In this document: in pieces, positions 491-58,500 of the stretch
Position numbering within the stretch: the stretch's first letter is position 1
Layout: each line of letters starts with the position of its first letter
IMG/VR virus record: IMGVR_UViG_3300038673_000220
Span: 1-64,000 of that record
Origin: a virus
Taxonomy: Duplodnaviria; Caudoviricetes
Length of the DNA: 64,000 bases
Strand: one strand, 5' to 3'
The notes under the pieces: generated by a model
Told to the model about the DNA's origin: nothing
Seen by the model: only the letters and a program-made list of their open reading frames with translations
Database searches by the model: none
Position numbers and translations under genes: made by a program

Positions 491-530
491 AAATAAACAC
501 CCAGCCTTAGAGAGCTGGGTGTTTATTTTT
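491..530 (+). terminator. intrinsic terminator
   Basis: AAATAAACACCCAGC-loop-GCTGGGTGTTTATTT plus T tract just after the stop codon. Confidence 0.85.
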
Positions 531-623: not shown

Positions 624-905
624 ATGAGAGCTATTAGACATAAGAAAACTGGTAAGATTTATTACATACTCAATGATGAAGTTATTTGCGCCACTAATGA
701 ACATAGTGGTCAAAGAAATGTCCTTTATGTCGGTAAAGAGAGAACAACGAATGAATGGACCTTCTTTGTAAGAGAATTCAATGAATTTTTTGAGAGGTTC
801 GAATTTACTACGGATATAGAAACAACACTAATTGGAGATCTCGATAACTTAAATAAAGCTGTACATTTTGTAACTGAGAGTATCTTTAAGGGTGAGGATA
901 ACTAA
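624..905 (+). CDS. hypothetical protein (DUF1653-like, RHKKTGKxY)
   Basis: RBS GAGG; IRHKKTGKIYYIL...VLY...FVREFNEF pattern. Confidence 0.6.
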   Translation: MRAIRHKKTGKIYYILNDEVICATNEHSGQRNVLYVGKERTTNEWTFFVREFNEFFERFEFTTDIETTLIGDLDNLNKAVHFVTESIFKGEDN

Positions 906-1252
906 TGTCATTACTTAGAATTGATACCATTGATGATTTTGAACCATTAGCTTATTGTAATTATATTACGACGAGTGGTTCAAAGATGAGTATTCCAATC
1001 ATAGATAGCCAGATCGAAGGTATGATTTTATTTGAGGAGGCTTATGATTCGAATATACCATTATTAAAAATAGTGCATACAAAGAATATTGAGACTGTCA
1101 TATTGTGCAATCGTTTTGAGAACATAATAACGATTGAGCATGATTTCCATATAAAAACATTTATTTGTTGTATGATTAAGTACCAGGCCAAAGAATCTGG
1201 TATATTGCCTATACCAAAAGATATCAATTCAATAAACTTCGACATAATCTAG
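905..1252 (+). CDS. hypothetical protein
   Basis: TAATG stop/start coupling with the upstream ORF. Confidence 0.65.
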   Translation: MSLLRIDTIDDFEPLAYCNYITTSGSKMSIPIIDSQIEGMILFEEAYDSNIPLLKIVHTKNIETVILCNRFENIITIEHDFHIKTFICCMIKYQAKESGILPIPKDINSINFDII

Positions 1253-1816
1253 GTGAGAGTCATGAGTGATGTCATTAGTGCGAATGATCTTTTAAAAGGA
1301 GTTGTTGAAGGAATAAAAGAAGAAAACATAAACAATTATTGTAATAGTATTAAAAATGCTTCTGGTGATAGAGCTTGGATCATCTATTTAGCAAAAGAAG
1401 CTAAATGGTGGATCGAAGATGATATCACGACATGTGCATCTATATTAAACGCTTCAGGAAATCAGGCTTTAGCTATATGCTACGCTAAATTATCAGGATG
1501 GTGGATCTATTCAGATGAGCAAACTACACAACAAATCACATTAGCTCCTGGTAATAAAGCTTTAGCTATTGCTACAGCTGTTTCAAGTAATATCTGGACA
1601 TTACCTATAGATGATGCCTGTCGAATGATATTGGAATCATGTGGTGATAGAGCTTTAGCTATTTATCGTGCTAAAAATTCAAAATGGTGGAACCAATCTG
1701 ACGATGATGCGTTTAAAGAAATTTTAAAATCATCGGATAATCAGTACGTTATAAATTGTATCAAAAATGACGGTTGGTGGAATTTAAAATCTGATAATCA
1801 TTTCTCTCAAAGGTGA
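1253..1816 (+). CDS. helical repeat protein (~33-aa GDRAxAIxxAKxxxWW repeats)
   Basis: Four to five imperfect repeats: GDRAWIIYLAKEAKWW, GNQALAICYAKLSGWW, GNKALAIATAVSSNIW, GDRALAIYRAKNSKWW. Confidence 0.75.
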   Translation: MRVMSDVISANDLLKGVVEGIKEENINNYCNSIKNASGDRAWIIYLAKEAKWWIEDDITTCASILNASGNQALAICYAKLSGWWIYSDEQTTQQITLAPGNKALAIATAVSSNIWTLPIDDACRMILESCGDRALAIYRAKNSKWWNQSDDDAFKEILKSSDNQYVINCIKNDGWWNLKSDNHFSQR

Positions 1817-1822
1817 TAAACA

Positions 1823-2134
1823 GTGTTAGATGATAATTGTTTTGATGGTAATGAAGAACGTGTTGAAAAGAAAAGACATGAGGATAAATGCTGCAATCTT
1901 GTATTGAAGCATACTAAGATCATGTCAAATATCGTTGGAGGAATATCATTACGTAGAGCTAGAGTTGAACATAATGTTGACATTGAAATGTTAGCTAAAC
2001 AAGCAGACCTTGATTTAGCTAAGATCGAATCAGTTGATGATGTTATCGATATGATCAACTATCTTCGTGATAAAAACTGTATTGATAATCCTGACGAACG
2101 CATTGGTAATCTAATATCAAATGGAGGACTGTGA
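1823..2134 (+). CDS. hypothetical protein, possible HTH
   Basis: LRRARVEHNVDIEMLAKQADL resembles the start of an XRE-type HTH. Confidence 0.5.
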   Translation: MLDDNCFDGNEERVEKKRHEDKCCNLVLKHTKIMSNIVGGISLRRARVEHNVDIEMLAKQADLDLAKIESVDDVIDMINYLRDKNCIDNPDERIGNLISNGGL

Positions 2135-2385
2135 TGAAATATATCAATATCGATGGAATCGGGATGATAACATTTCCAGATACCATTGATCATTCAAAGA
2201 TGTATGATCTTGTTTCAAAACTTAAACCTGGAGCATCTATAATCGGTGCTGGTAAAATCGGTGGTCAAGGTGATGAACTCGTTCCTGATTATCTCTATTG
2301 CTATGGTGAATCTATAACTTTAGGTTATCGATGTGATGAAGAGAAAGATAATTGGGAATTAGAAAGAAACTTAAGATTGTTTTAA
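2131..2385 (+). CDS. hypothetical protein
   Basis: RBS GGAGG; overlaps the upstream stop. Confidence 0.65.
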   Translation: MMKYINIDGIGMITFPDTIDHSKMYDLVSKLKPGASIIGAGKIGGQGDELVPDYLYCYGESITLGYRCDEEKDNWELERNLRLF

Positions 2386-2419
2386 TCATAATACAAATTC
2401 TGTTAAGGATAAGACCACT

Positions 2420-2791
2420 ATGAATACCATCATTGATAAACTGACAGTTAAAGCTCTCCAGGCTATGACCATAGCTGAATTCACTCAATACGCTAAAGAG
2501 GTTATCGAACCGAAGTTTAAAAATAGGAACGAAGGATTCGGATTTCGGTTTCCTTATGCTCTTAATTGTAGAATGGAAGAGAAGATGGCTGATTGTAGCA
2601 AACAACTACGCTATACAGCATTTTTGAATAACAGTGGGAGACTTTGTCATATCATCTCACCTGATGATAGTGACTTTATTTTAAGGATACGTTTCCATAG
2701 ATCGATCAAGTCTTATTCTGAAAAGAAACAACGGATCGCTATATGGATGAAAGCGCATAAATGGATCGATATTGGAGAATGTCCGAAATGA
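2420..2791 (+). CDS. hypothetical protein
   Basis: RBS AAGGA; in operon. Confidence 0.6.
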   Translation: MNTIIDKLTVKALQAMTIAEFTQYAKEVIEPKFKNRNEGFGFRFPYALNCRMEEKMADCSKQLRYTAFLNNSGRLCHIISPDDSDFILRIRFHRSIKSYSEKKQRIAIWMKAHKWIDIGECPK

Positions 2792-3207
2792 TACAACTAT
2801 CCGAATTAAAAAGCACCCTTGAAGATAATTTTCAAGGGTGCTACACCTTCCCAAAGTTGGAGGATGAGGCTAAAAAATCAACAAGCAATATAACTTGTAT
2901 ATGTCCTCTCCATGGGGAGTTTAAAAAGAGATTATCATATCTCACTAATGACAAAATGGGGTGTCCTCATTGCGCTGATCTTCGAAGAGTTATCGCTATG
3001 AAGAGTGATGTTGATAACGCTCTTAAAGAAATGATAGCTTTTTATAAATACGTTATGAATCCTGTTTATACTGACATGCTTATCGTTAGTACGAGTAGGA
3101 ATGCTTTTCAAAATTATCCAAGACTAGCGAATAATTCTTATCAACTACTGAAGTTTGTTTATTTTAGATACAGACTGATTAGTGGTCATGATGCTTTTTC
3201 ATTGTAA
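2761..3207 (+). CDS. zinc-ribbon protein (DUF723-like, homing-endonuclease-associated)
   Basis: ICPLHGEF...GCPHCA motif; true start probably a downstream ATG. Confidence 0.6.
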   Translation: MDRYWRMSEMIQLSELKSTLEDNFQGCYTFPKLEDEAKKSTSNITCICPLHGEFKKRLSYLTNDKMGCPHCADLRRVIAMKSDVDNALKEMIAFYKYVMNPVYTDMLIVSTSRNAFQNYPRLANNSYQLLKFVYFRYRLISGHDAFSL

Positions 3208-3229
3208 TTAAGTGTAAAAATATACCGAA

Positions 3230-4267
3230 ATGAATATTTTACAAAGTAAACTTAACCTTATTTTAGATGGTGGTTTGGGATCATCGGGTAAAGGCCTCTT
3301 AGCTGAGTATCTTGGATTGACTAACCATGTTGATATAGCGATAACATCAGCAGCAAGTAATGCTGGTCATTCGTTCATCTATCATGGGAAGAAGAATATT
3401 TCCAAATACATCCCAGTATCAGGTATAATAAACAAACGATCAACCATCTATCTTTGTTCTGGAGCTATCATCAATCCAAATATTTTCATAAAGGAGGTCG
3501 AGCATTTCGATATTGCACCTGATAGAATTATCATCCATCCGAATTGTGCTGTTATAGATGATGATGATATTCTTAATGAAAAAGATAAGGATAGCGCTAC
3601 AACGAAGTTGTCATCAACTCAATCTGGTGTAGGGAGAGCTTTATCTCGGAAGATCTTAAGAGAATCTGAATTAGCTGGATCTAATCCTATACTTAAACGA
3701 TTCACTCAAGATTTCGATCTTCAGTATTTATTGGATCAAGGTTGTACAGCTCTTATGGAAATCCCACAAGGTATGGACCTTAGCCTAAATGGTCCTTTTT
3801 ATCCTTATTGTACATCTCGTGATATTTCTGTAAGCTCAGCTTTGAATGATGCTCAAGTTCATCCATTCTATCTAGGAAAGGTATGTTGTGTTATAAGGAC
3901 TTTCCCAATACGAGTTGGGAATATCAAAGATGAGAATGGAAATGAGATCGGGTACAGTGGACCTTTCTATGATGATGCTGAGGAATTGTCATGGAAGGAT
4001 ATTGGTGTTGATCCAGAAATAACAACCGTAACAGGTAGAGAGAGACGAGTCTTTGAATTTTCAATGAAGCAATATCGAAAGATGATTAAGTCATTCCGTC
4101 CTGATTATGTTTTGTTGAATTTTGGTAATTATCTTGAATTAGATCGATTAGATGATCTCGTTAAACGATTACCTAAAGTAACTCACATCGGACTTGGTCC
4201 AGAAGTGAGTGATATAATTACGATTAAAGAATTCAAAAATGCTGTTAAATACTCAAGAATAAAATAA
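3230..4267 (+). CDS. purZ: PurZ-type adenylosuccinate synthetase homolog (N6-succino-2-amino-2'-deoxyadenylate synthase)
   Basis: GSSGKG where PurA has GDEGKG (Asp to Ser); SNAGH, STQSG, YPYCTSRD, RTFPIRVGN, TTVTGRERRVFEFS; LNFGNY where PurA has TKLD; short 345-aa length as in PurZ. Confidence 0.8.
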   Translation: MNILQSKLNLILDGGLGSSGKGLLAEYLGLTNHVDIAITSAASNAGHSFIYHGKKNISKYIPVSGIINKRSTIYLCSGAIINPNIFIKEVEHFDIAPDRIIIHPNCAVIDDDDILNEKDKDSATTKLSSTQSGVGRALSRKILRESELAGSNPILKRFTQDFDLQYLLDQGCTALMEIPQGMDLSLNGPFYPYCTSRDISVSSALNDAQVHPFYLGKVCCVIRTFPIRVGNIKDENGNEIGYSGPFYDDAEELSWKDIGVDPEITTVTGRERRVFEFSMKQYRKMIKSFRPDYVLLNFGNYLELDRLDDLVKRLPKVTHIGLGPEVSDIITIKEFKNAVKYSRIK

Positions 4268-4286
4268 TACTTAAATAGGAATAATC

Positions 4287-4481
4287 ATGGAAAATGTGAA
4301 TGAGATAAGAGCATTTTATCCAGATGGTAGCAATCAATTGGGTCTTGATTACGATGGAGATGAGTGGAATGTTCAAGATCAACAACATCATCGTATGATA
4401 CCTAAAGATATTCGAACTAAACGAAAAAATAAACGTAAACTTACAAAACAATCTCGTCGGAAAAATAGGAGGATGAATTAA
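4287..4481 (+). CDS. small basic hypothetical protein
   Basis: RBS AGGA; K/R-rich C terminus. Confidence 0.6.
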   Translation: MENVNEIRAFYPDGSNQLGLDYDGDEWNVQDQQHHRMIPKDIRTKRKNKRKLTKQSRRKNRRMN

Positions 4482-4822
4482 TGTTGCATAATGATAATAA
4501 TATTCGTGACAATACAGTTAGATATAGTCGTGGGATTATTGCGGGTTGTTTTAATTATGATGATATTTATTCCAGTCTTACGATATTGTCTTCGTTAAAT
4601 GGTATTTTCTCAATAAATAGTGAAACTGGGAAATTAGCACTCACTGTTCGGAAAGGTGATACGGTCGTTTGTATTGATTCTAATCAATCATACGTTAATA
4701 TCATTGGTAAGAGTGATTCCGAAGATGATTGGGTAGAAATTGGGTCTCTGTATACTGATGAAGAATTGGAATTGATTAGTAAATACAATCCAAATATTAT
4801 ATCAGTAGATGGATCTCAATGA
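4481..4822 (+). CDS. hypothetical protein
   Basis: TAATG coupling; RBS GGAGG. Confidence 0.6.
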   Translation: MLHNDNNIRDNTVRYSRGIIAGCFNYDDIYSSLTILSSLNGIFSINSETGKLALTVRKGDTVVCIDSNQSYVNIIGKSDSEDDWVEIGSLYTDEELELISKYNPNIISVDGSQ

Positions 4823-4945
4823 TCTGCAATCATTAAACGTCAATTCAAAATTCGACAAATAGCCAGAAAACAACGACGAAAACAATTCAATCGGTCGGAT
4901 TTGATTATGAGGTTAAAGATATTATGATTAATCATTGTCATTTTA

Positions 4946-5341
4946 TTGGAGATTAAATTTAAGGGGGTTGACCGAATGCATTTTACTATAAGTAGTTTAT
5001 CTGGAAATTATCCTATGATAATAGGGTTACTATCCGTTCTGCTTGCATTAATTATTATAAATGTTATTGTTGTTTCAATAATACTATCTAATAAGTCAAA
5101 AAGAAACAATCGAATATCAGATCTGGATAAGGAATGGTTAATAAAATTACTCATCGAATCGCAATTAGAAGAAATAGATGAAGAAAGTATCGAATTTCTA
5201 ATATCTCAGATGTCCAATGAAACATTGTATGTGATGACTAAACTTTTAGGTGAGAATTCTGATAAAGATTTTCATCAGAATGATCTAATACTTTTTATAT
5301 GCACCACGATCGCGAATGAATCACAATTTCGGTTACAATAA
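4946..5341 (+). CDS. membrane protein
   Basis: One hydrophobic segment; likely start at ATG 4976 after AAGGGG. Confidence 0.55.
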   Translation: MEIKFKGVDRMHFTISSLSGNYPMIIGLLSVLLALIIINVIVVSIILSNKSKRNNRISDLDKEWLIKLLIESQLEEIDEESIEFLISQMSNETLYVMTKLLGENSDKDFHQNDLILFICTTIANESQFRLQ

Positions 5342-5344
5342 TAA

Positions 5345-5386
5345 ATATAAAGTTAGCTAAGCATCTTTGCTTAGCTAACTTTATAT
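5345..5386 (+). terminator. hairpin terminator
   Basis: ATATAAAGTTAGCTAAGCA-TCTT-TGCTTAGCTAACTTTATAT. Confidence 0.8.
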
Positions 5387-5423: not shown

Positions 5424-6026
5424 ATGAGGAATATCATCGTGACAAACGCAAAAATTGTAACAAATGGTATTGAACAGTATGAGTCATCTAAGAAAAATAA
5501 TCGAGGATACTCTGAACTTAATAATAATTATTATCGTGATAATCTCAAAAACATCTATGACAATTTGTATAAGAATATAGCTTCCAAAAAGCATTTAACG
5601 ATTATAGGTATATTCAATTATGCTGATACTGAAGAATTTAAACAACTTGGTATAGGTGGACGTAATCATGTACTTATATTCTGCAACATATGTAAAAAAT
5701 TCAGTATAATAACCATCGCATCGTTTCTAAGATCGAAACATAAATGCAAATATTGCTTTTACAATGCGTTGAAAAAGCGTCGACACAATAAACCAGAAAA
5801 AGCTTCATACACTTTCGAAGATTTAGTTAGAAAAGGTAAAGAAGTTCATGGTGATATCTACACTTATATTGGTAAGGATAGACATCATAATGGTGCGTCT
5901 CGTATTATTTATAAGTGTAATATATGCGGTCATATCAATAATCAATTGGCTCATAATCATTTTAAAGGAAGTGGGTGTTATAATTGTAACATCCTTAAGA
6001 GATCTTTAAATACTAGGAGAACTTAA
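5424..6026 (+). CDS. zinc-ribbon repeat protein (DUF723-like), no nuclease domain evident
   Basis: CNICKK, CKYC, VHGDIYTY, CNICGH, HFKGSGCYNC. Confidence 0.6.
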   Translation: MRNIIVTNAKIVTNGIEQYESSKKNNRGYSELNNNYYRDNLKNIYDNLYKNIASKKHLTIIGIFNYADTEEFKQLGIGGRNHVLIFCNICKKFSIITIASFLRSKHKCKYCFYNALKKRRHNKPEKASYTFEDLVRKGKEVHGDIYTYIGKDRHHNGASRIIYKCNICGHINNQLAHNHFKGSGCYNCNILKRSLNTRRT

Positions 6027-6500: not shown

Positions 6501-7148
6501 ATGTTTGACTTTATTTTTAACAAGCATCGTATGTCATTTTTCAGGTCGAGTTTGTACATACCGATCATTATGGCTTTTGTATTGATTAATTATTTAAAAC
6601 TTACAGAATTTGAGACGATGTCAACATGCGTAATAGTCGCGTGTATCTCAGTTGTGTCGATAATTTTTAATAGACATTATTTCTGTAAGCTTTTTATTAG
6701 TGAAATATTAATTATTGATATGATAGCATCATTCTTTATAATCTTCTTTTTAGCATCTAAAGTTCATAGCGCTGAAATAGTTTATCCTGATATAACTGTT
6801 AAAATAAATCGAGTGTATGATGGTGATACGATATTCGTTGATGTACCTAATATACCAGATGCTTTTGGTAAAGAACTCGGAATACGTATACGAGGTATCG
6901 ATACTCCCGAAATAAAAGGAACTTGTGATAAAGAGAAACAATTAGCTTTAACAGCTAAGGATCTTGTTGTTAAGCTCCTAGAAAAAGAAAACTTCATAGT
7001 TTTAACGAATATAGGACGTGATAGATATTTTCGATTGGATGCTGATATCATTTTGAAGGACGGGTCAAGCGTTGCTGATATTTTATTGAAAGCTGGTTTG
7101 GCTTATCCTTATGACGGACAAACTTCCAAACAATCATGGTGCGATTAA
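6501..7148 (+). CDS. membrane-anchored thermonuclease (SNase family)
   Basis: VYDGDTI, IRIRGIDTPE, DRYFR, LLKAGLA motifs after three hydrophobic segments. Confidence 0.85.
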   Translation: MFDFIFNKHRMSFFRSSLYIPIIMAFVLINYLKLTEFETMSTCVIVACISVVSIIFNRHYFCKLFISEILIIDMIASFFIIFFLASKVHSAEIVYPDITVKINRVYDGDTIFVDVPNIPDAFGKELGIRIRGIDTPEIKGTCDKEKQLALTAKDLVVKLLEKENFIVLTNIGRDRYFRLDADIILKDGSSVADILLKAGLAYPYDGQTSKQSWCD

Positions 7149-8315: not shown

Positions 8316-9083
8316 ATGGTAATCATCAATAGTGAGTTTTTACAAAGCGTCTTACCGGAGGTTTCTGGATCAAGGAGTGATAGTCGTTCTGACATCCTAA
8401 GAGAGATAGAACCTCATTTAGATGCTATACTTAAAGAATACGAAATCGATACACCTTTACGTATAGCTCATTTCTTAGCTCAATTGGCTCATGAGAGTGA
8501 TAGTTTTTGTACTACTCAAGAGTATGCATCTGGGACAGCTTATGAAGGTCGTAAAGATCTTGAGAACACTGATCCTGGTGATGGTCGAAAGTACAAAGGT
8601 CGAGGTTTGATCCAACTAACTGGAAAGGCTAATTATCGACAGATGGGTAAGATCTTAGATCTTCCATTAGAATTACATCCATGTATAGCTGCTGAACCAG
8701 TTATTTCTCTAATGATCGCTTGTGAGTATTGGAAAAGTCGTGATATCAATAAAGCTGCTGATACTGACAATATTGAAAAAGTTACAAAGCTTGTTAATGG
8801 TGGTTTGAATGGTATCGATGATCGTAAGAAGTATTATGCGAAATTTAAGAGTGGTTTAAATCAAACTGACAAAATCGAAGATGTGACAGTTGTTTTAAAG
8901 AAAGGGTCACAAGGAGAACATGTGATGAAGCTTCAACAAATTCTCAAAGATAAAGGGTACTCTATCAAACCTGATGGTGATTTTGGAAAGAATACTGATA
9001 GCGTAGTTAAAATGTTTCAGAAAACCAATGGTTTGAATCCAGATGGTGTTGTTGGCAAAAACACTTGGAAGATCTTAGCTTAA
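8316..9083 (+). CDS. endolysin: GH19 lysozyme/chitinase domain plus C-terminal peptidoglycan-binding domain
   Basis: AHFLAQLAHES, YKGRGLIQLTGKANY, VNGGLNG; LKKGSQGEHVMKLQ...DGDFG...FQKTNGL...DGVVG. Confidence 0.9.
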   Translation: MVIINSEFLQSVLPEVSGSRSDSRSDILREIEPHLDAILKEYEIDTPLRIAHFLAQLAHESDSFCTTQEYASGTAYEGRKDLENTDPGDGRKYKGRGLIQLTGKANYRQMGKILDLPLELHPCIAAEPVISLMIACEYWKSRDINKAADTDNIEKVTKLVNGGLNGIDDRKKYYAKFKSGLNQTDKIEDVTVVLKKGSQGEHVMKLQQILKDKGYSIKPDGDFGKNTDSVVKMFQKTNGLNPDGVVGKNTWKILA

Positions 9084-27363: not shown

Positions 27364-27381
27364 TCCAAAATTCAGATATAT

Positions 27382-28773
27382 ATCATACTAAGAAGATGAC
27401 CCTTTCCTTTAGGTGAGGGGGTACTGAGAATCATAAATTATCCATACAGAACGCATAATCCAAAAGGATCAATCATGAACCTAACAGCTCAGGTAAAACT
27501 GGAGCCTGATGCTGATCAGGCTTTATCATTAACTCGAACCATGCAGCTCTTTAATGATGCTTGCAACTTTGTAGCTAAATTAGCTTTTAAGCGTAAAGTA
27601 TACCATCCAGTAGCGTTGCACAATCTCAAGATCAGCGACAGCACACTTTATTACCATCTTAGAGCTACTTATCCAAAGCTCAATTCGATACAAATCGAAC
27701 TGGTTTTTCGTAAGGTGGCTGATGCTTATAAAACACGCTTAAAACGCTTAAAGAAGAGGAAGAAGCTAAAGCATCCTTGCAGGTTCAAAGAGATGAGCAG
27801 CATTCCTTATAATCATCTTATCAGTAACTATAAGCTTATCGTAGCTTCGGCTGGAGATAGAGCAATCACTCCACACCTTTCAGTCGTTTTAGTTGACGAT
27901 GCTCGATACAAACGTTCTAAGATCGATTACATCGTAGCTGATCATCAGCGTAAGATATTAGCTAACGCTGTTCCTGGAACGTTTGGCGGAGAATCGCGGA
28001 TCTCATTCCGAAAAGGCGCTTTTTATATCAACATCCCAGTGGAGCAATGCGTTGCTCCAGAAGCTATCGATCCGATCAGATCGATTGGAGTGGATCTTGG
28101 AGTAGTGAATATCGCAACTACTTCGTATGGTAAGATCTTCAGTGGAGAGCTTATCGAAAATAAGCGGTTGAAGTTCCAGAAGCATCGATCTTCATTACAA
28201 AAGTGTGGATCGAAATCAGCTAAGCGTCGGTTGAAGTCAGTAGCTGGTAAAGAAGCACGTTTTCGCAAAGATCTCAATCATTGCATCAGTAAAGAGCTCG
28301 TTGTTGCGGCTAAAGGCACAAGTTCACGGATCGTGTTGGAGGATCTCACCAACATCCGAGAACAGACAACGGTTAGGAAGCAGCAACGAGCTCGTCATCA
28401 TGGTTGGAGTTTTGCTCAATTACGTGAGTTCATCGGCTACAAAGCAGCTATGGCTCAAGTGGAAGTTAAGGTTGTGGATCCGAGCTACACGAGCCAAAGA
28501 TGCAATAACTGCGGAAGCATCAGTCGATCGAACCGAAGAAATCAGTTCCGATTCAGCTGCAAAAGTTGCGGTCATGATGCTCATGCAGATTACAACGCCG
28601 CTTGCAATCTAGCTTGGTTAGGAGATAATGGTGCTGAACGATTCGTTAAGGATGAGTTGATGCACTAAAGACTATGTTGGGGCTGTAACTGTCAACCAGC
28701 CTTATGTAGGGGTGCTATCGGAGCAATGATAGAGCTACTTACAAGCCTCTTCCTTTAGGTGGAGGTTGTTGAC
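27382..28773 (+). mobile_element. non-autonomous IS200/IS605 (IS1341-type) element, copy 1
   Basis: Appears identical to 45896..47287; left hairpin CCCTTTCC-TTTA-GGTGAGGG, right hairpin CCTCTTCC-TTTA-GGTGGAGG, ends in TTGAC; no TSD, no tnpA; left end is 27382 or 27384. Confidence 0.9.
27475..28668 (+). CDS. tnpB: TnpB RNA-guided endonuclease
   Basis: RuvC triad GVDLG / VLEDL / ADYNAA; TSQRCNNCG...CKSCG zinc finger. Confidence 0.95.
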   Translation: MNLTAQVKLEPDADQALSLTRTMQLFNDACNFVAKLAFKRKVYHPVALHNLKISDSTLYYHLRATYPKLNSIQIELVFRKVADAYKTRLKRLKKRKKLKHPCRFKEMSSIPYNHLISNYKLIVASAGDRAITPHLSVVLVDDARYKRSKIDYIVADHQRKILANAVPGTFGGESRISFRKGAFYINIPVEQCVAPEAIDPIRSIGVDLGVVNIATTSYGKIFSGELIENKRLKFQKHRSSLQKCGSKSAKRRLKSVAGKEARFRKDLNHCISKELVVAAKGTSSRIVLEDLTNIREQTTVRKQQRARHHGWSFAQLREFIGYKAAMAQVEVKVVDPSYTSQRCNNCGSISRSNRRNQFRFSCKSCGHDAHADYNAACNLAWLGDNGAERFVKDELMH

Positions 28774-31049: not shown

Positions 31050-32399
31050 ATGAGTGATAATAAAATAATCAACAAGCAGTTCATACATTCATGTTCTATT
31101 CGAACAAAAACTGGAAATGCTGTAATCGTTAAAGAAAAAAACCAATACGAAGATGGAACCATCAAACCGAACCTAGTTTTATATGAGAATCCAAAGAGAT
31201 CCTTTTATATAACTCAACCAAAATACCGGACATACAATTACAAACCTGAATACGAATTAGCTTCAAGGCTTGACAAGATAACGGTTAGTGATCATGAGCT
31301 CTACTCGAAAGTAGCTGAGCTTTTTAATCTTGGTCCTGGGTATCATTCAGCTGATAAGCTTTTCAAATCACCGTATATCTTTGGAGCTGATATAAATGTT
31401 GAAGCTCTTATCAAGATGCGATATATGAATCAATACCCTGATTCATCTTTACTCCCAACTGTTGGATTCCTTGACATTGAGACAAGTATTGATACGAATC
31501 AGATCATCATGATATCTTATCTTCATGATACGACGGTTCATACCGCTATCCTTCGTTCATTCTTTTTTGAAGAAAAAGGTAAAGATCGAGTACCTATCAA
31601 TCTAGATGATCTTGTACCTTTCATCCAAAAGAACCTCGAAGGAAGAACTAAAGATATAAACTTCACTTATGACATTAAGATATTCGACATCGAAATAAAG
31701 CTCATAGCTTGGATCATGCAATGTATCCATATGTCAGAAACTGATTTTATATCTATCTGGAATATGAACTTCGATATCCCAAAGATCTTAGCTACTATTG
31801 TAAAATCAGGTTATCGTCCAGAGGATCTTTTCCATAATCCAAAACTTCCAACGAGATGCAAATACCTTAAGTATCACGAAGATAAGCAGAAAAAAGATCA
31901 CTTCACATTGAAATGGCATTGGCTTTATAGCTCATGTGGAACTCAATGCGTTGATGCAATGGGTCTTTATTCTCAATGTCGAAGAACTCAAGGTTATCTT
32001 GACAAGTATAGTCTTGATAACGTTCTTGATAAAGAGATTCAAATGGGGAAACTCCCACTTATCAGTGGATCTCACGTTATCATGCAACGTCATCATTTTA
32101 AAGAATACATCGTTTACAACATATTCGATGTCATTGGATTGAAGCTTCTTGAAGACAGGATCAATGATTTTGTATCTATGCATGTGCTTATAGGTCCAAC
32201 TCCAGTAAGCAAGTTTGCAACTCAGACCACTCGATCGACAAATGATATGTATTACGACCTTATCAACAAAGGTATGATCCTCTCATCTAAATCAGGTGAT
32301 GATCCTTTTATCAAATTCGATAAGTACTTACCTCGAGTAGGTGGTGCAGTTCTATCTGCGAGTCGAGTACGAGGAGTAGGGATTCCCTTAACCTTATGA
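31050..32399 (+). CDS. family B DNA polymerase, N-terminal 3'-5' exonuclease part (phiKZ gp082-like)
   Basis: ExoI FLDIET, ExoII WNMNFD, YSLDNV, ExoIII YNIFD, then GGAVL, which normally precedes motif A. Confidence 0.88.
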   Translation: MSDNKIINKQFIHSCSIRTKTGNAVIVKEKNQYEDGTIKPNLVLYENPKRSFYITQPKYRTYNYKPEYELASRLDKITVSDHELYSKVAELFNLGPGYHSADKLFKSPYIFGADINVEALIKMRYMNQYPDSSLLPTVGFLDIETSIDTNQIIMISYLHDTTVHTAILRSFFFEEKGKDRVPINLDDLVPFIQKNLEGRTKDINFTYDIKIFDIEIKLIAWIMQCIHMSETDFISIWNMNFDIPKILATIVKSGYRPEDLFHNPKLPTRCKYLKYHEDKQKKDHFTLKWHWLYSSCGTQCVDAMGLYSQCRRTQGYLDKYSLDNVLDKEIQMGKLPLISGSHVIMQRHHFKEYIVYNIFDVIGLKLLEDRINDFVSMHVLIGPTPVSKFATQTTRSTNDMYYDLINKGMILSSKSGDDPFIKFDKYLPRVGGAVLSASRVRGVGIPLTL

Positions 32400-32938
32400 A
32401 CGAAGATTTTTTTCCTATTTCAAAAGATACCGATGTCAAATGCTATCGTTGTAAAAAAGAAAATACTCAATCTGAAGAGCAGTTTTACCTTACAGAGTGG
32501 GAACTTTCTACAGGAGCATCAACTGACGGTATTTATTATTGTCATTCTTGTATAATTAATAGTGGAGAACATACAATGATCACATTGCTTGAACCTAAAA
32601 ATCCAAAGTCAGATAAAAAAGATAAAAACGTACCAGTAACTGTATTCACCTTAACTTTCGCTACAATCGATCTGAATTATTCGAACGTATCGATATCGAA
32701 GAAGGTACCTAATAGCAGGCTTGAATTGAACGAATCTGTATTAAATGATCATTTTGATGATATCATCAGGGATTATAATGATCCAAGTATTTCTACCATT
32801 AAGGGAGTATTTAATGGAAAATACGTTAACGTCGAAAAGAAATACATATCAGGATTCTTCGTTGATGTGCTTCATAAAGTTGAAGGTGAAGCTTGTAATG
32901 GTTTTGATAATGATGGTCTACCTCCTTGGAATCCTTAA
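32396..32938 (+). CDS. zinc-finger hypothetical protein inside the polymerase gap
   Basis: CYRC...CHSC; ATGA overlap with the polymerase stop. Confidence 0.6.
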   Translation: MNEDFFPISKDTDVKCYRCKKENTQSEEQFYLTEWELSTGASTDGIYYCHSCIINSGEHTMITLLEPKNPKSDKKDKNVPVTVFTLTFATIDLNYSNVSISKKVPNSRLELNESVLNDHFDDIIRDYNDPSISTIKGVFNGKYVNVEKKYISGFFVDVLHKVEGEACNGFDNDGLPPWNP

Positions 32939-32959
32939 TCCGATTAAGAGGAAACAATA

Positions 32960-34207
32960 TTGGAATTGTATTTTATCATTACAACTATCATAGATAGATT
33001 CAGAGAATATGCTTCGATAGAAAATTGTATTAGTGAACGATTTATGTATTTAGCTTATCTCTTAGCTAATATCGATAACGATCCACCATCATTCAAACAT
33101 CTCGTCGTTGAAGCGTTATCTCGTCAGGTTCATGGTGATGATTATGAGTATCCGTATGATGAAACTATCTATACTGATCTCATTTTCGTTGAAACTAAAA
33201 TCCCTATCATCTGTAAAACGCATGGTTTATTTTACCTAACATTGAGAGAGCATCTCATACCTCCCATCATAGATGCAGACGAAGCTTTTAAGCTCGATAT
33301 TCGAGATAATTACCCTCACGGATGCTTGACTTGTATCAATGAAATCAAAAACTCGAATGCAAGACGTCGATTAACTACTTCGATGTTCCTCATGCAATTA
33401 GAACAATATCCAGACTCATTAAAGGTTGATTATAGCCTTGTAAGATATGGTATTCCAACTGATGGGTCCTCTAGTGTTGATTCTGATGGTAAAAGGATAG
33501 ATCCTTCAAGTATTCCGATAGCTCTTATCTGTAGAGAGTGTAGCACTCCTGATAATAAAGTCATCTATTATCAGAGACCTTATATCCATATAAAAGGATT
33601 CAAAAAGAATCAAGGAACTGGGTGTAAAGAGTGTCATAAGAAGTTGAGAATTGAAGTTGGTAAAAGAATATGGGAAGATGAAGCTTTTCGTAAGTCTAAA
33701 ACCGAAGCTACTAGAATCCAAATGAATGATCCAATTATGAGAGAAAAATTGCGATCATGGATGACAGAGCGGAATAAGGATCCTGAGTTTAGGAAACTTA
33801 TGAGTTCTGAGGAGGTTCGTAAGAATAGGAGTATATCTAACTCTAATTTTGATAGATCAACTCCATCTGATGTTTATCTTCTTACTGGATATTCATCTGA
33901 ATTTGGATATTTGATCAAGGTTGGATGCAGCTCTAATATCCATAGTAGATTAGCCAATCTCAAGGTTGGTAATGATATCAATTTTGAGTTGATTTGGTCA
34001 AAACATTTCGAAAACGGTATTGAAGCTTTTAAATTGGAGGATTTCATCTTAAATAATGAAACAATTCTGAATCATAAATGGAATGGTGATATGGGGAGTA
34101 TTGTTCGTAAAGGAAGTACAGAAATCCTAACTTTTTCATCAGAAGAAGAACGATCTAAGATCCTCAATTTCATCATCCAAATTTCAGATACTTCCAAATT
34201 CAACTAA
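32960..34207 (+). CDS. putative homing endonuclease (zinc ribbons, NUMOD-like repeats, GIY-YIG/T5orf172-like domain)
   Basis: IICKTHG, GCLTC, GCKEC; DVYLL...IKVGCSSNIHSRLANL...LE...GSTE. Confidence 0.75.
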   Translation: MELYFIITTIIDRFREYASIENCISERFMYLAYLLANIDNDPPSFKHLVVEALSRQVHGDDYEYPYDETIYTDLIFVETKIPIICKTHGLFYLTLREHLIPPIIDADEAFKLDIRDNYPHGCLTCINEIKNSNARRRLTTSMFLMQLEQYPDSLKVDYSLVRYGIPTDGSSSVDSDGKRIDPSSIPIALICRECSTPDNKVIYYQRPYIHIKGFKKNQGTGCKECHKKLRIEVGKRIWEDEAFRKSKTEATRIQMNDPIMREKLRSWMTERNKDPEFRKLMSSEEVRKNRSISNSNFDRSTPSDVYLLTGYSSEFGYLIKVGCSSNIHSRLANLKVGNDINFELIWSKHFENGIEAFKLEDFILNNETILNHKWNGDMGSIVRKGSTEILTFSSEEERSKILNFIIQISDTSKFN

Positions 34208-34319
34208 CCTATTATATAACAAGATTCATTTCAGCATTTTTAGGAAACTTGAAAAATACACCTCTTTTGACAGTTTCCTAAAAATACCATTTTAAACCAT
34301 TCCACATGGAGGTTTAATT

Positions 34320-34613
34320 TTGCAATTAAGCTTCGAAACGATGTTCTCGATACTAGTAGCAGACCTTGATTACTCAAGTCTTTATCCAAGTATTATGAGA
34401 GCGATAAATCAGAGTCGGATGACTCTAACATTTGTACCTATCTTGATTGATGGAATGACTCGAGATGAACTTGATAGGTACTTTAGTAATCTTGTAAATG
34501 TTAGAGAAAACGCTGAAACTCTTTGTTCTGTTTATCACGGATTTCCAGATTACCAAGAAATGTACCAATTAGTTAGGGACTATCAGTATAGAGACCAACC
34601 CTCAATTAATTGA
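34320..34613 (+). CDS. family B DNA polymerase, motif A fragment
   Basis: VADLDYSSLYPSIMRAIN; own GGAGG RBS (34308-34312) and TTG start. Confidence 0.85.
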   Translation: MQLSFETMFSILVADLDYSSLYPSIMRAINQSRMTLTFVPILIDGMTRDELDRYFSNLVNVRENAETLCSVYHGFPDYQEMYQLVRDYQYRDQPSIN

Positions 34614-45650: not shown

Positions 45651-45905
45651 ATGAAAGGTAGACGTAATCCGAACATTCGTTATGACAGCCCTATTCGTCG
45701 TTGGATTTCTGACAAATTACGTGAAAAAGGAATCAATGATCCTCTTCAATTCAGACAGTTGTGTTATGATTATTTTAAAGAGCATACTGATATTGATCAG
45801 AGTCGTTATATCAGTAAAGCTTCTGATTTGATGAAACCTATTTTAGGTCAATGTGTTCTTGGTAGAAAGACTGCTGGTATCATCATTGAGCATATATCAT
45901 ACTAA
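45651..45905 (+). CDS. hypothetical protein whose 3' end is interrupted by IS copy 2
   Basis: Removing 45896..47287 restores ...IIEHIISLGETHDWWKEPS* with stop at 47331-47333, directly before a terminator. Confidence 0.7.
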   Translation: MKGRRNPNIRYDSPIRRWISDKLREKGINDPLQFRQLCYDYFKEHTDIDQSRYISKASDLMKPILGQCVLGRKTAGIIIEHISY

Positions 45906-47287
45906 GAAGATGACCCTTTCCTTTAGGTGAGGGGGTACTGAGAATCATAAATTATCCATACAGAACGCATAATCCAAAAGGATCAATCATGAACCTAACA
46001 GCTCAGGTAAAACTGGAGCCTGATGCTGATCAGGCTTTATCATTAACTCGAACCATGCAGCTCTTTAATGATGCTTGCAACTTTGTAGCTAAATTAGCTT
46101 TTAAGCGTAAAGTATACCATCCAGTAGCGTTGCACAATCTCAAGATCAGCGACAGCACACTTTATTACCATCTTAGAGCTACTTATCCAAAGCTCAATTC
46201 GATACAAATCGAACTGGTTTTTCGTAAGGTGGCTGATGCTTATAAAACACGCTTAAAACGCTTAAAGAAGAGGAAGAAGCTAAAGCATCCTTGCAGGTTC
46301 AAAGAGATGAGCAGCATTCCTTATAATCATCTTATCAGTAACTATAAGCTTATCGTAGCTTCGGCTGGAGATAGAGCAATCACTCCACACCTTTCAGTCG
46401 TTTTAGTTGACGATGCTCGATACAAACGTTCTAAGATCGATTACATCGTAGCTGATCATCAGCGTAAGATATTAGCTAACGCTGTTCCTGGAACGTTTGG
46501 CGGAGAATCGCGGATCTCATTCCGAAAAGGCGCTTTTTATATCAACATCCCAGTGGAGCAATGCGTTGCTCCAGAAGCTATCGATCCGATCAGATCGATT
46601 GGAGTGGATCTTGGAGTAGTGAATATCGCAACTACTTCGTATGGTAAGATCTTCAGTGGAGAGCTTATCGAAAATAAGCGGTTGAAGTTCCAGAAGCATC
46701 GATCTTCATTACAAAAGTGTGGATCGAAATCAGCTAAGCGTCGGTTGAAGTCAGTAGCTGGTAAAGAAGCACGTTTTCGCAAAGATCTCAATCATTGCAT
46801 CAGTAAAGAGCTCGTTGTTGCGGCTAAAGGCACAAGTTCACGGATCGTGTTGGAGGATCTCACCAACATCCGAGAACAGACAACGGTTAGGAAGCAGCAA
46901 CGAGCTCGTCATCATGGTTGGAGTTTTGCTCAATTACGTGAGTTCATCGGCTACAAAGCAGCTATGGCTCAAGTGGAAGTTAAGGTTGTGGATCCGAGCT
47001 ACACGAGCCAAAGATGCAATAACTGCGGAAGCATCAGTCGATCGAACCGAAGAAATCAGTTCCGATTCAGCTGCAAAAGTTGCGGTCATGATGCTCATGC
47101 AGATTACAACGCCGCTTGCAATCTAGCTTGGTTAGGAGATAATGGTGCTGAACGATTCGTTAAGGATGAGTTGATGCACTAAAGACTATGTTGGGGCTGT
47201 AACTGTCAACCAGCCTTATGTAGGGGTGCTATCGGAGCAATGATAGAGCTACTTACAAGCCTCTTCCTTTAGGTGGAGGTTGTTGAC
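45896..47287 (+). mobile_element. non-autonomous IS200/IS605 element, copy 2
   Basis: Appears identical to 27382..28773 (offset 18514). Confidence 0.9.
45989..47182 (+). CDS. tnpB: TnpB RNA-guided endonuclease
   Basis: Same protein sequence as 27475..28668. Confidence 0.95.
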   Translation: MNLTAQVKLEPDADQALSLTRTMQLFNDACNFVAKLAFKRKVYHPVALHNLKISDSTLYYHLRATYPKLNSIQIELVFRKVADAYKTRLKRLKKRKKLKHPCRFKEMSSIPYNHLISNYKLIVASAGDRAITPHLSVVLVDDARYKRSKIDYIVADHQRKILANAVPGTFGGESRISFRKGAFYINIPVEQCVAPEAIDPIRSIGVDLGVVNIATTSYGKIFSGELIENKRLKFQKHRSSLQKCGSKSAKRRLKSVAGKEARFRKDLNHCISKELVVAAKGTSSRIVLEDLTNIREQTTVRKQQRARHHGWSFAQLREFIGYKAAMAQVEVKVVDPSYTSQRCNNCGSISRSNRRNQFRFSCKSCGHDAHADYNAACNLAWLGDNGAERFVKDELMH

Positions 47288-55507: not shown

Positions 55508-58500
55508 ATGCAGCCGAATATTCCTATTCAATATTCAACTTTACGAGAGTACATTGAAGCTATTTCTGGTGCTCAAGTTACGACGTTGACGCAAACTGTT
55601 GATGCTAATTATGCAACGATGATGGGTTTGGTCAATGATCTTCAAACATCGATCGCTGATATCGAATCATTAAATGCGAATATCAGTGCGAACCCAGACG
55701 TTGTTCTTAACACTTCACATCGTCTGACTATTGCTGGTAACCCACATCATGTAACGAAAGCAGAAGTTGGATTAAGTGAGGTACCGAACTACGACTTTAC
55801 TGCTGAAGTTCAGATCAACAATGCGAAAGTTGGTATAACCCAAGCTCAAGCTGATGCTATCATTATTAACTCAGCGAAAGTTGGTATCACTGTTCAGCAA
55901 GCTGCCGATATCATTTCCAATAATGATCATCGTGCTATCGTATCTGGGAATCCACATCAGGTCACCAAAGCTGAAGTAGGTTTGGGTAATGTCCCGAACA
56001 TCGATTGTACGAATGCTTCGAATATCACTTCGGGTATTTTACCAACGAGTGTTCTTCCTCCATTAGCTATTACTGATACATATTCAGTTGCTAATGAGGC
56101 CGAGCAGTTAGCTCTTACTGTACAAAAAGGTGATATTGCTGTTCGTACAGATCTTTCAAGATCGTATATCAATCAGACTGGTGGTAATGAGGCCATGACT
56201 GATTGGCAGGAGCTCATGACTCCAACTGATCTTGTTCTCTCTGTTAATGGCTATACTGGAACAATCCAACTTGTTACTACAGATATTCCAGAAGGTACCA
56301 ACTTCTATTATACAGAAGCACGTGTATCTAACAATATTGATGTTGCTACCAATACTGCAAACCGTCACACTCACGGAAATAAAGCTATCCTTGATGCAAC
56401 AACTGCATCTTTTACTACTGAGATTTCCAACACCATCGATCTCAACTCCGCTCATCGTGAGACAACTGTAGGTAATCCGCATCAGGTTACTAAAGCTGAT
56501 GTAGGTTTGAGTAATGTACCAAACCACGATTTTACCGATGAGGTTGCCGCCAATACTGCAAAGGTCGGTATCACTCCTGAACAAGCTGCTGACATTGTAG
56601 CTGCTAATGTTCATAGAACTACTACCAGCGGTAATCCTCACGCTGTAACTAAAGCTGAAGTTGGTTTAGGTAATGTACCGAACACTGATTTTACAGCTGA
56701 TGTTCTTGCAAATAATGCCCATCGTGCAATTATTACGGGTAATCCGCATCAAGTTACTAAAGCCGAGGTTGGCTTAAGTAATGTTCCAAATCATGATTTC
56801 ACTGCCGAAGTTGATGCGAATACTGCAAAGGTTGGTATCACTCCTGAACAAGCTGATGCTATCGTAGCCAATACTGCAAAGGTTGGTATCACTCCTGAGC
56901 AAGCTGCTTCTATCGTAGCATCTGACGCTCATATTGCAACTGTTACTGGCAATCCTCACCAAGTAACGAAAGCTGAAGTTGGCTTAAGTGAAGTCCCCAA
57001 CGTTGACTGTACCAATGCGAGTAATATCACTACTGGTACTCTACCAACAAGTGTTCTTCCTGCATTGGCTATCAGTGAAACTTTTGTAGTTGCCGATGAA
57101 ACCGCTCAGTTGGCTCTCACTGTACAGAAAGGTGATGTTGCTGTTCGTACCGATGAAGGAAAATCTTACATCAATGCGACTGGTGATAACACTGCGATGA
57201 CTGATTGGCAGGAGCTCTTAACTCCTACTGACACCATCTTAAGTGTAAATGGTCAAACTGGTAACGTCATTCTAACCACTACGAATATTGCAGAAGGGAC
57301 TAATCTCTATTATACTGAGGCTCGTGTATCTGCGAATGTTGATGTTGCTCTTAATACAGCGAACCGTCATAACCATACCAATAAATCTATTCTTGATGGT
57401 ACTGAAGAATCTTTCACTACTGTATTAAAGAATAATATCTTAACCAATAATGATAAGGTTGGTATCACCACTGAACAAGCTGATGCTATCGTGGCCAATA
57501 CTGCAAAGGTTGGTATCACACCACAGCAAACTGCTGATATTATCTCCAACAACACTCATCGTGCTATCGTATCTGGTAATCCGCATCAAGTCACTAAAGC
57601 TGAAGTTGGATTAGGTTTGGTTCCGAATCACGACTTCACCGATGAGGTTGATGCGAATACTGCGCATAAGAATACTATTACTGGTAATCCGCATCAAGTT
57701 ACTAAAGCTGAAGTAGGATTAGGTAACGTACCGAATACTGACTTTACTGGTGATATCGCTGCATCGAATGCTCATATTGCAACTATCACTGGTAATCCGC
57801 ATCAGGTCACTAAAGCTGAAGTAGGATTGGGTCTTGTACCTAATCATGACTTTACAGCTGAAGTTGATGCGAATACTGCAAAGGTTGGCATCACTCCTGA
57901 ACAAGCTGCTGCAATTGTAGCGAATACAGCACACGCTGCTATCGTAACTGGTAATCCGCATCAAGTTACTAAAGCTGAAGTAGGATTAGGTAATGTTCTA
58001 AACATTGATACGACAAATGCTACGAATATTACTTCAGGTATGCTTCCTTCAAGCGTACTTCCTCCTATTGCTATCACTGATACATATTCTGTAGCAAGTG
58101 AAGCTGAGCAATTAGCTCTTGATATCCAACGTGGTGATATCGCTGTTCGTACAGATATTAATCGTTCGTACATTAATAAACTTGGTGTTAACGAAGCTAT
58201 GTCTGATTGGCAGGAGCTTTTAACACCAATCGACTCCGTTCTTTCTGTTAATGGATTCACTGGAGCTGTCGTTCTGACTACATCCAGTATTTCTGAAGGG
58301 ACTAATCTCTATTACACTGAAGATCGTGTTATCAATAACGTTGATGTTGCTACCAATACTGCAAATCGTCATAATCATGGAAATAAAGCGATCCTTGATG
58401 GAACGACTGCATCATTCACCACTGAGATCTCCAACACCATCGATCTCAACTCTGCGCACCGTTCTACTATCACCGGAAATCCTCATCAAGTAACGAAAGC

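Follow-up and report, generated by a model that had tools for sequence, protein, structure and literature searches.

To our knowledge, the proven Z-genomes, in which 2-aminoadenine (Z) is substituted for adenine, all belong to small phages in which PurZ or PurZ0 is paired with enzymes that remove deoxyadenosine triphosphate (dATP) and supply deoxyguanosine monophosphate (dGMP). In phages phiVC8 and S-2L the enzymes of the host have been shown to finish the path to the Z deoxynucleoside triphosphate (dZTP), which most polymerases do not tell apart from dATP (PMC8342488); phages with PurZ0 use DutZ, which is Dut-like, instead of DatZ and MazZ (PMC12884076). More than 2000 viruses have been predicted, from PurZ homology, to have dZ-DNA (PMC13128860). 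The subject here is a purZ-type gene in a 64,000-nucleotide stretch (referred to below as the window) of the DNA of a tailed phage (Duplodnaviria; Caudoviricetes; IMG/VR record IMGVR_UViG_3300038673_000220, positions 1 to 64,000). Its 345-residue product, judged by its sequence, is an ATP-type PurZ, and this bona fide PurZ is conserved in large and jumbo phages in which no known helper has been found, one of them a complete 287-kb genome. That the enzyme is active and ATP-dependent, and brings about a partial or condition-dependent A-to-Z substitution without removal of dATP, is the reading that we favour with moderate confidence.

The gene is a single open frame with an ATG start and 345 codons, and encodes a short-form homologue of adenylosuccinate synthetase (PurA). 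It and its three diagnostic motifs are placed as follows:

3230-4267, plus strand: purZ-type gene (N6-succino-2-amino-2'-deoxyadenylate synthase homologue), identified by its open reading frame (ORF), family and PDB scores, tree and ligand contacts.
3278-3295, plus strand: P-loop GSSGKG, residues 17-22, with Ser18 in place of the catalytic Asp13 of PurA, from DNA and alignments.
4022-4048, plus strand: aspartate loop TTVTGRERR, residues 265-273, with the Thr265-Thr268 tip and Arg272/Arg273, from alignments.
4115-4132, plus strand: ATP-type base-recognition motif LNFGNY, residues 296-301 (Asn297, Phe298, Asn300, Tyr301), from alignments.

Pfam family PF00709 matches the protein at 77 bits and PHROG 1211 ('2-aminooxy adenylosuccinate synthetase') at 168 bits; among NCBIfam models that for PurZ (NF038379) is best at 185.8 bits, followed by the archaeal PurA model at 163.8 bits, both below their strict cut-offs. 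The nearest solved structures are the PurZ of phiVC8 (6FM1, E 1e-41) and of S-2L (7ODX, E 4e-37); the next are Pyrococcus PurA (4e-30), the PurZ0 of phage Archimedes (7VF6, 9e-24) and E. coli PurA (4e-11), the PDB bit scores being 146.5 for PurZ and 108.6 for Pyrococcus PurA. Identity in BLASTP is 35% to phiVC8 PurZ (over residues 8-329) and 22% to E. coli PurA, and a megablast comparison of the gene with GenBank phages was negative.

A preliminary description of this DNA had seen in the frame an adenylosuccinate-synthetase fold, and had taken the serine in GSSGKG and the presence of LNFGNY in place of TKLD as marks of a PurZ-type enzyme. DNA and alignments confirm the frame and both motifs, and residues, profile scores and phylogeny concur on the type of enzyme. 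Ser18 falls in the column of E. coli PurA Asp13 and phiVC8 PurZ Ser14, and serine is invariant there in all 94 aligned PurZ and PurZ0 rows. Within Thr265-Thr266-Val267-Thr268, Thr265 aligns with phiVC8 T262, where PurA has glycine (Gly298); the threonine at the tip of this loop (TTVT) accommodates the 2-amino group (PMC8342488, from which the roles of PurZ residues are taken). LNFGNY aligns with E. coli LTKLDV, which contains the GTP motif TKLD, Phe298 corresponding to Lys331 and Asn300 to Asp333. The phiVC8 residues F295 and Y298, equivalent to Phe298 and Tyr301, stack on adenine (bioRxiv 10.1101/2025.10.22.683976), and the Gly323-Pro324 stacking pair near the C-terminus is also present. Neither the catalytic Asp13 of PurA nor its GTP-binding (T/N)KxD is found: Ser18 and NFGN are there instead.

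The dGMP-, ATP- and aspartate-contacting residues of S-2L PurZ have been listed by Czernecki et al. (PMC8342488). Those kept with respect to the S-2L and phiVC8 enzymes are G17, S18, G20, N44, A45, G46, H47, S129, T130, R144, Q180, Y193, C194, T195, R228, V229, T265-T268, R272, R273, N297, F298, N300, G323 and P324, and the changes from S-2L PurZ are Thr53 to Ser48 and Gly130 to Ser128, both conservative, together with Leu16 at the backbone position of Tyr21. Val229 and the PurZ-type insertion that follows it, which block the 2'-OH (PMC8342488), are both in place. A metagenome association study singles out ten positions that set PurZ apart from PurA (bioRxiv 10.1101/2025.10.22.683976); here they are PurZ-like except for Leu16 (phiVC8 Phe12), Ser146 (Pro144) and Glu276 (Ser273).

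The same preliminary description had called the protein intermediate between PurA and PurZ on account of the PurA-like arginine in TTVTGRERR, and this has to be abandoned. Arg270 does occupy the column of E. coli PurA Arg303, but arginine is the majority state of PurZ: 48 of 64 other PurZ have it (lysine in 9 and leucine in 7, the exceptions including phiVC8 with K and S-2L with L), as do all 24 aligned members of the protein's own clade (a 25th row has a gap there), and it is also usual in PurZ lineages linked to DatZ. The placement of the protein inside ATP-type PurZ speaks against an intermediate as well.

That placement comes from trees built with FastTree on 95 rows and IQ-TREE on 48 rows and rooted on E. 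coli PurA alone. Their references are the PurZ of phiVC8, S-2L and SH-Ab 15497, five actinophage PurZ0, E. coli PurA, 80 IMG/VR loci and metagenomic homologues; archaeal PurA was compared through profile and PDB scores rather than in a tree. A phylogeny with PurA, PurZ0 and PurZ, which had been proposed as a check on the enzyme type, puts the protein inside ATP-type PurZ (100/96 in IQ-TREE) and apart from E. coli PurA. PurZ0 stands outside ATP-type PurZ with 100/100, the trio of characterised PurZ groups with close relatives at 99/95, and the clade of the window's protein, 14 rows, is recovered at 99/99. In the best tree this clade is nested among lineages with datZ after purZ. Constraining it outside all other ATP-type PurZ is worse by 18.5 log-likelihood units and is not rejected by the approximately unbiased (AU) test (p-AU 0.179), and only membership of ATP-type PurZ is therefore claimed, not the nested position. 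Identity as a PurZ0 was also considered and is ruled out by Asn300, where PurZ0 would have Asp at the Asp333-equivalent, and by the separate PurZ0 clade.

At E<=1e-10 the protein has 841 homologues in a collection of 5.8 billion proteins, the best 120 of them at 51-70% identity. A simple motif scan of these 120 finds GSxGKG in 114 and NF.N[YH] in 116 (the remainder fall outside the scan patterns), a retention that argues for purifying selection on PurZ chemistry. Decay of the gene to an inactive relic, or an artefact of assembly or annotation, might be suspected from the lack of a strong Shine-Dalgarno sequence before its ATG and from its score under the curated NCBIfam cut-off. We consider this very improbable, since the open frame is full-length and aligns with PurZ over residues 7-330, independent assemblies of JGI and Logan origin give contigs that encode the identical protein, none of the catalytic residues is changed, and 38 aligned homologues have 66 invariant columns.

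Many members of the clade are on long contigs, of 54-512 kb, and their loci are AT-rich: the median G+C is 34%, compared with 50-53% for the remaining PurZ groups. Of the 180 GenBank phage records that contain a PurZ homologue none exceeds 83 kb, in keeping with the preliminary statement that known Z-genome phages are mostly siphoviruses and podoviruses, and all of these homologues are less than 40% identical to the window's protein. Two further homologues may be recorded here. A 7.5-kb contig binned with an Arcobacter nitrofigilis metagenome-assembled genome (MAG; a low-G+C member of the Campylobacterota) encodes a PurZ 54% identical to the window's (locus L107), a faint indication of the hosts that the clade may infect. 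On a 1,000,106-bp contig of an uncultured Micavibrio MAG (L110, 5078-7092), a MazZ-like ORF immediately precedes a PurZ homologue of 44% identity with GSTGKG and NFVNY; the two could be a Z-pathway pair of a prophage or of the cell.

The IMG/VR record, of which the window makes up the first 64 kb, is 149,134 bp long and 54% complete by CheckV; a copy of the same contig from JGI sample 3300045917 is 182,610 bp long, and the contig recurs in run SRR24332389. The sequence examined, positions 7.4-182 kb, comes to ~175 kb or ~63% of the estimated genome, and it is to this portion that the following searches refer unless another extent is given. The G+C content of the phage is 33%, and that of purZ is the same as that of the surrounding genome. 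The assignment of the phage to a phiKZ-like jumbo lineage, also made in the preliminary description, stands in part. The phage has homologues of gp55, gp71/73 and gp74, subunits of the non-virion RNA polymerase of phiKZ (E 6e-37 to 4e-40; together with the homologue of DNA polymerase gp50, E ~1e-37 to 1e-41 against phiKZ), a Pfam model for the RNA polymerase beta subunit also matches, and capsid, helicase and polymerase fall in PHROG families of phiKZ type. The best relatives of the polymerase are those of chimalliviruses, at ~28% identity; the capsid protein has almost no match among GenBank phages. One DNA polymerase of phiKZ type seems to be in pieces (window 31050-34613), a 449-residue N-terminal part that corresponds to positions 11-462 of the 576 of phrog_3011 being followed by a 415-residue endonuclease-like ORF; a second, gp50-like polymerase is encoded at 142165-144474 (minus strand) of the 149-kb record. 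Chimallin, the protein of the nuclear shell (phiKZ gp54, or the Phikzvirus-specific Pfam model PF25677), and PhuZ had no match in the ~63% examined. The name myovirus, also used in that description, goes unconfirmed, as tail sheath had no Pfam match there. Two IMG/VR phages that also carry purZ, G006 (286,688 bp, with inverted terminal repeats and rated complete) and G007 (199,880 bp), share with this phage the capsid protein (33% identity) and the RNA polymerase beta subunit. Downstream of purZ in G006, by 2-6 kb (locus L022, 13224-16906), are a prohead protease of phiKZ type (Peptidase_S80), a protease resembling ClpP and a protein of the MYG1/UPF0160 family.

Helper genes are the rule near purZ elsewhere. 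Of the 80 IMG/VR loci, 57 have a homologue of DatZ no more than 10 kb from purZ, often immediately downstream, 55 have a MazZ-2-like gene and 62 have a family A DNA polymerase (PolA). The large-contig clade has no DatZ, MazZ or family A polymerase near purZ, except for PolA in two T4-unlike large phages. Profiles for DatZ, MazZ, MazZ-2, DUF550 and DpoZ were built from the IMG/VR loci, those for MazZ/DUF550 drawing on S-2L MazZ, phiVC8 p26 and the DUF550 protein of SH-Ab. For DatZ, the Pfam families HD_3, YfbR-like and HD and two DatZ profiles gave no match in the ~175 kb; for DpoZ, there was no match to PF00476 (DNA_pol_A), the replicases present being of phiKZ type; and Pfam PF04447 (DUF550) matched nowhere, control phages included. 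DatZ and PolA were both found in four of four positive controls, complete purZ phages of 59-92 kb, and DatZ in none of the eight large purZ contigs, which include the 91%-complete G005 as well as G006. PolA is absent from the jumbo phages that carry RNA polymerases (the present phage, G006 and G007) and present on the large contigs G002, G003 and G005. The complete G006 has no DatZ, MazZ/DUF550 or PolA/DpoZ, so that the orphan state is real in a close relative and no mere effect of sampling. The preliminary observation that no datZ or mazZ lies beside purZ thus holds, and extends to ~175 kb of this phage and to the complete 287-kb relative; a search of the genome for DatZ, MazZ/DUF550 and chimallin, which had been suggested at the same time, was negative over the ~63% at hand.

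Trimeric dUTPases have the opposite distribution, being present on six of the eight large purZ contigs and in none of the four DatZ-bearing controls; none is encoded in the 149-kb record of this phage. Their presence recalls the DutZ solution of the PurZ0 phages. Trimeric dUTPases are widespread in large phages in any case. On a 111-kb phage contig (L010, 953-4177), a family A DNA polymerase that is interrupted by an intein with a LAGLIDADG homing endonuclease lies a few kb from purZ, with a trimeric dUTPase and a ribonucleotide reductase between the two.

The pathway that we envisage would begin with PurZ, whose predicted activity is the conversion of dGMP, aspartate and ATP to N6-succino-2-amino-2'-deoxyadenylate (dSMP); the intact active site and the strong conservation make this catalysis likely. 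The adenylosuccinate lyase (PurB) and kinases of the host would then carry dSMP to dZTP, which the phage's own replicase would place opposite T. Without a gene of the DatZ, MazZ/DUF550 or DpoZ type, dATP would probably not be removed, and partial substitution is what an orphan PurZ predicts, barring some unknown adenine-exclusion step. In E. coli, the full S-2L cluster exchanged 12% of the A in plasmids and 3.9% of that in the chromosome for Z; less Z resulted from incomplete clusters, the losses of datZ and mazZ being synergistic (PMC8342488). We infer that the outcome would be a partial or condition-dependent replacement of A by Z in a genome of 33% G+C, unlike the complete substitution of S-2L and phiVC8; the presence of Z in the phage DNA is plausible. 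The AT-richness of the clade would fit two uses of the enzyme, stabilising AT-rich DNA and turning surplus G nucleotides into a surrogate for A.

Several points weigh against this reading. In E. coli, PurZ without helpers gives only low substitution (PMC8342488), which puts the selective value of an orphan PurZ in question. Profiles of DatZ, MazZ, MazZ-2, DUF550 and DpoZ/PolA have no match in the ~175 kb even at E<=10, and Pfam models for PurB (Lyase_1), MazG, NUDIX and HD find nothing in the 149-kb record; as regards the orphan state itself, the sequence examined covers ~63% of the estimated genome. NF038379, an 'exception'-type model, has a cut-off of 300 bits that the protein, at 185.8 bits, does not reach. 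Finally, Leu16 takes the place of the aromatic phiVC8 F12 beside the 2-amino group, as leucine does in five of 25 members of the clade.

Some of the same evidence could be turned to a role in the nucleotide pool, with little or no Z in DNA: the enzyme would drain surplus dGMP derived from host DNA, or would have drifted to GMP, dIMP or inosine monophosphate (IMP), as an auxiliary gene of purine metabolism. Members of the clade consistently lack DatZ, MazZ and DpoZ, their loci are AT-rich, their purZ genes are found among genes of nucleotide metabolism (ribonucleotide reductase, dUTPases, ThyA, thymidylate kinase), and Arg270 is the counterpart of PurA Arg303, a residue in contact with the 2'-OH on the ribose of IMP (PMC8342488). 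But the Ser18, Thr265, Asn300 signature and the Val229 loop that blocks the 2'-OH are those of a PurZ specific for dGMP and ATP, and Arg270 loses its force as the rule in DatZ-linked lineages too. Moreover, the Z monophosphate (dZMP) is reported to be usable by cellular kinases and polymerases (PMC8342488), so that making dSMP without Z in DNA needs an unknown sink. We regard such a role as unlikely, and return to an active PurZ with partial substitution as the preferred reading.

A different alternative is that substitution is complete, through helpers that are not orthologous to the known ones: a DUF5662 protein acting like DatZ as a hydrolase of dATP or dAMP, an upstream nucleoside triphosphate pyrophosphohydrolase (NTP-PPase) that gives dGMP, destroys dATP or does both, or a phage polymerase selective for Z. 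The DUF5662 gene lies 3.2 kb downstream of purZ, in the following surroundings:

6501-7148, plus strand: SNase-domain protein (Pfam SNase match), in a block with DUF5662 and the endolysin that is syntenic with the related contig L103.
7453-7926, plus strand: DUF5662 protein of 157 residues, a candidate HD-like metal-dependent phosphohydrolase (Pfam PF18907, 102 bits).
8316-9083: endolysin (lysozyme), in the same SNase, DUF5662, endolysin order as in L103.

Across 49 homologues the invariant residues of DUF5662 are H14, H35-D36, H74, H80-H81, E106 and D110, and this H...HD...H...HH...E...D pattern, typical of HD phosphohydrolases, makes an HD-type metal site a candidate on motif grounds. In hhalign H14 and H35-D36 fall on DatZ H33 and H65-D66, but the alignment as a whole has a probability of 10.6%; searched by sequence, DUF5662 matches no structure in the PDB, and in the ESM Atlas it matches DUF5662 clusters only. 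The second candidate, a 315-residue protein of the dimeric dUTPase family (Pfam dUTPase_2, 36 bits; phrog_173, 'NTP pyrophosphohydrolase'), is encoded 8.7 kb upstream of purZ on the longer contig, next to a class II ribonucleotide reductase; reductase and pyrophosphohydrolase together occupy the region 6-9 kb upstream. Dimeric dUTPases, MazG and the T4 dCTPase constitute one all-alpha NTP-PPase superfamily, and T4 gp56 destroys dCTP, in parallel to the removal of dATP by MazZ/DUF550.

The neighbourhoods of purZ in related phages speak on both sides. DUF5662 is near purZ in L103 and L096 as well. In L103, of 132 kb, purZ is preceded at a distance of 104 bp by one DUF5662 gene and followed at 1.2 kb by a dUTPase_2 gene; a 512-kb contig has DUF5662 at 8 kb from purZ, and a 282-kb contig a dUTPase_2 gene at 8.5 kb. 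Against this, three further loci of the clade lack both genes up to 10 kb from purZ, and the complete G006 has neither type of dUTPase and only a DUF5662-like motif of 18.7 bits; a triad of purZ, DUF5662 and NTP-PPase as a rule for the whole clade is rejected on these grounds. The L103 dUTPase_2 gene adjoins that for thymidylate synthase, as an ordinary dUTPase would, and DUF5662 also occurs without purZ, in Moorella phage MTATph1, in a PolA phage beside dCMP deaminase and in a T4-like region. Complete substitution by such means strikes us as distinctly improbable, and a part for DUF5662 in clearing dATP is a lead only. A broader proposal would make the present phage part of a widespread clade of large and jumbo phages with AT-rich DNA, some with phiKZ-type RNA polymerases, that make Z-DNA with an orphan PurZ and an undescribed mode of adenine exclusion (the HD-like DUF5662 hydrolase, the pyrophosphohydrolase of the dimeric-dUTPase family or a Z-selective replicase of phiKZ type). 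This, too, we put forward as speculation that is unlikely to hold as it stands.

The purZ gene lies within a block of co-directional ORFs on the plus strand (624-5341), which is bounded at either end by a terminator-like hairpin:

491-528, plus strand: terminator-like hairpin upstream of the purZ gene block.
5345-5386, no single strand: bidirectional terminator-like hairpin of 19 pairs that ends the purZ gene block.

ORFs of zinc-finger and HNH-type endonuclease-like character flank purZ (window 5424-6026 and 2761-3207; phrog_681/559, with a DUF723 motif), suggesting homing-endonuclease traffic in the region. An insertion element is present in two copies (window 27378-28668 and 45892-47182) that are 100% identical over their first 300 nucleotides, each with a 397-residue transposase ORF of identical PHROG scores (phrog_506), and one of them lies directly after the capsid gene region. 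At window 55508-63547 is encoded a repeat-rich protein of 2679 residues that matches more than 25 PHROGs of tail, tail-fibre and virion proteins by way of many short repeats. In the 64-kb window no tRNA gene turned up. In the 149-kb record (both strands), six-base palindromes made of G and C alone number 0 against 7.8 expected, small numbers for which the phiKZ control trends alike; palindromes that contain A or T are not avoided (5366 observed, 5382 expected).

We found no published link between PurZ and jumbo phages or Chimalliviridae, although members of this clade may have been counted, without comment, among the more than 2000 viruses predicted to have dZ-DNA. What is new here is the placement of the PurZ clade, arginine as the PurZ norm at position 270, the control provided by a complete genome, the AT-richness of the clade and the DUF5662/NTP-PPase lead. 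If Z does enter the DNA, the range of size and lifestyle of Z-DNA viruses would be wider, Z-genomes would extend beyond small siphoviruses and podoviruses, and there would be either natural genomes of mixed A and Z or a new route of adenine exclusion. It would also mean a second layer of DNA protection in a lineage related to the nucleus-forming phages, where DNA modification is said to be rarer. If Z does not enter the DNA, PurZ would have a role outside DNA substitution, which would likewise be new.

Set beside the known systems, the phage shares with the Chimalliviridae its non-virion RNA polymerase subunits, a gp50-like DNA polymerase, the phiKZ-type PHROGs of capsid, helicase and polymerase and, in its relative G006, the Peptidase_S80 prohead protease; it is set apart from them by a capsid with almost no GenBank phage match, and chimallin and PhuZ were not detected in the portion examined. 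The enzyme has in common with PurA the family PF00709, the P-loop GxxGKG, NAGH, Gln180, Arg228-Val229 and Arg270 (Arg303), and with the archaeal short-form PurA of Pyrococcus horikoshii (5K7X/2D7U) its length; it differs from PurA in the replacements Asp13 to Ser, TKLD to NFGN and Gly298 to Thr265. It resembles the actinophage PurZ0 (Gordonia phage Archimedes, 7VF6; Ghobes; Wayne-like Arthrobacter phages) in the serine at the catalytic position, the TTVT loop and the want of DatZ. PurZ0, however, retains the Asp equivalent to E. coli Asp333 and has no Phe/Tyr pair, where Asn300, Phe298 and Tyr301 are found here; matches to PurZ0 are far weaker (E 1e-12 to 4e-26), and its phages have DutZ, in contrast to a 149-kb record without a trimeric dUTPase. 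From PurZ of S-2L and phiVC8 the window's protein is distinguished by its separate uncultured subclade (99/99) on AT-rich contigs of 54-512 kb, by Arg270 (Lys in phiVC8, Leu in S-2L) and Leu16 (Phe/Tyr), and, as from most PurZ, by Glu276 instead of Thr or Ser; their systems have datZ, mazZ or dpoZ genes of which none adjoins purZ here. With these two enzymes it nevertheless shares the short form of the family (343-387 residues), Ser for the catalytic Asp, the TTVT loop, an ATP pocket of the NFxNY type, the Val and insertion that exclude the 2'-OH, the arginine contributed across the dimer (Arg144, Arg146 in S-2L), and the ATP-type clade to which all three belong.

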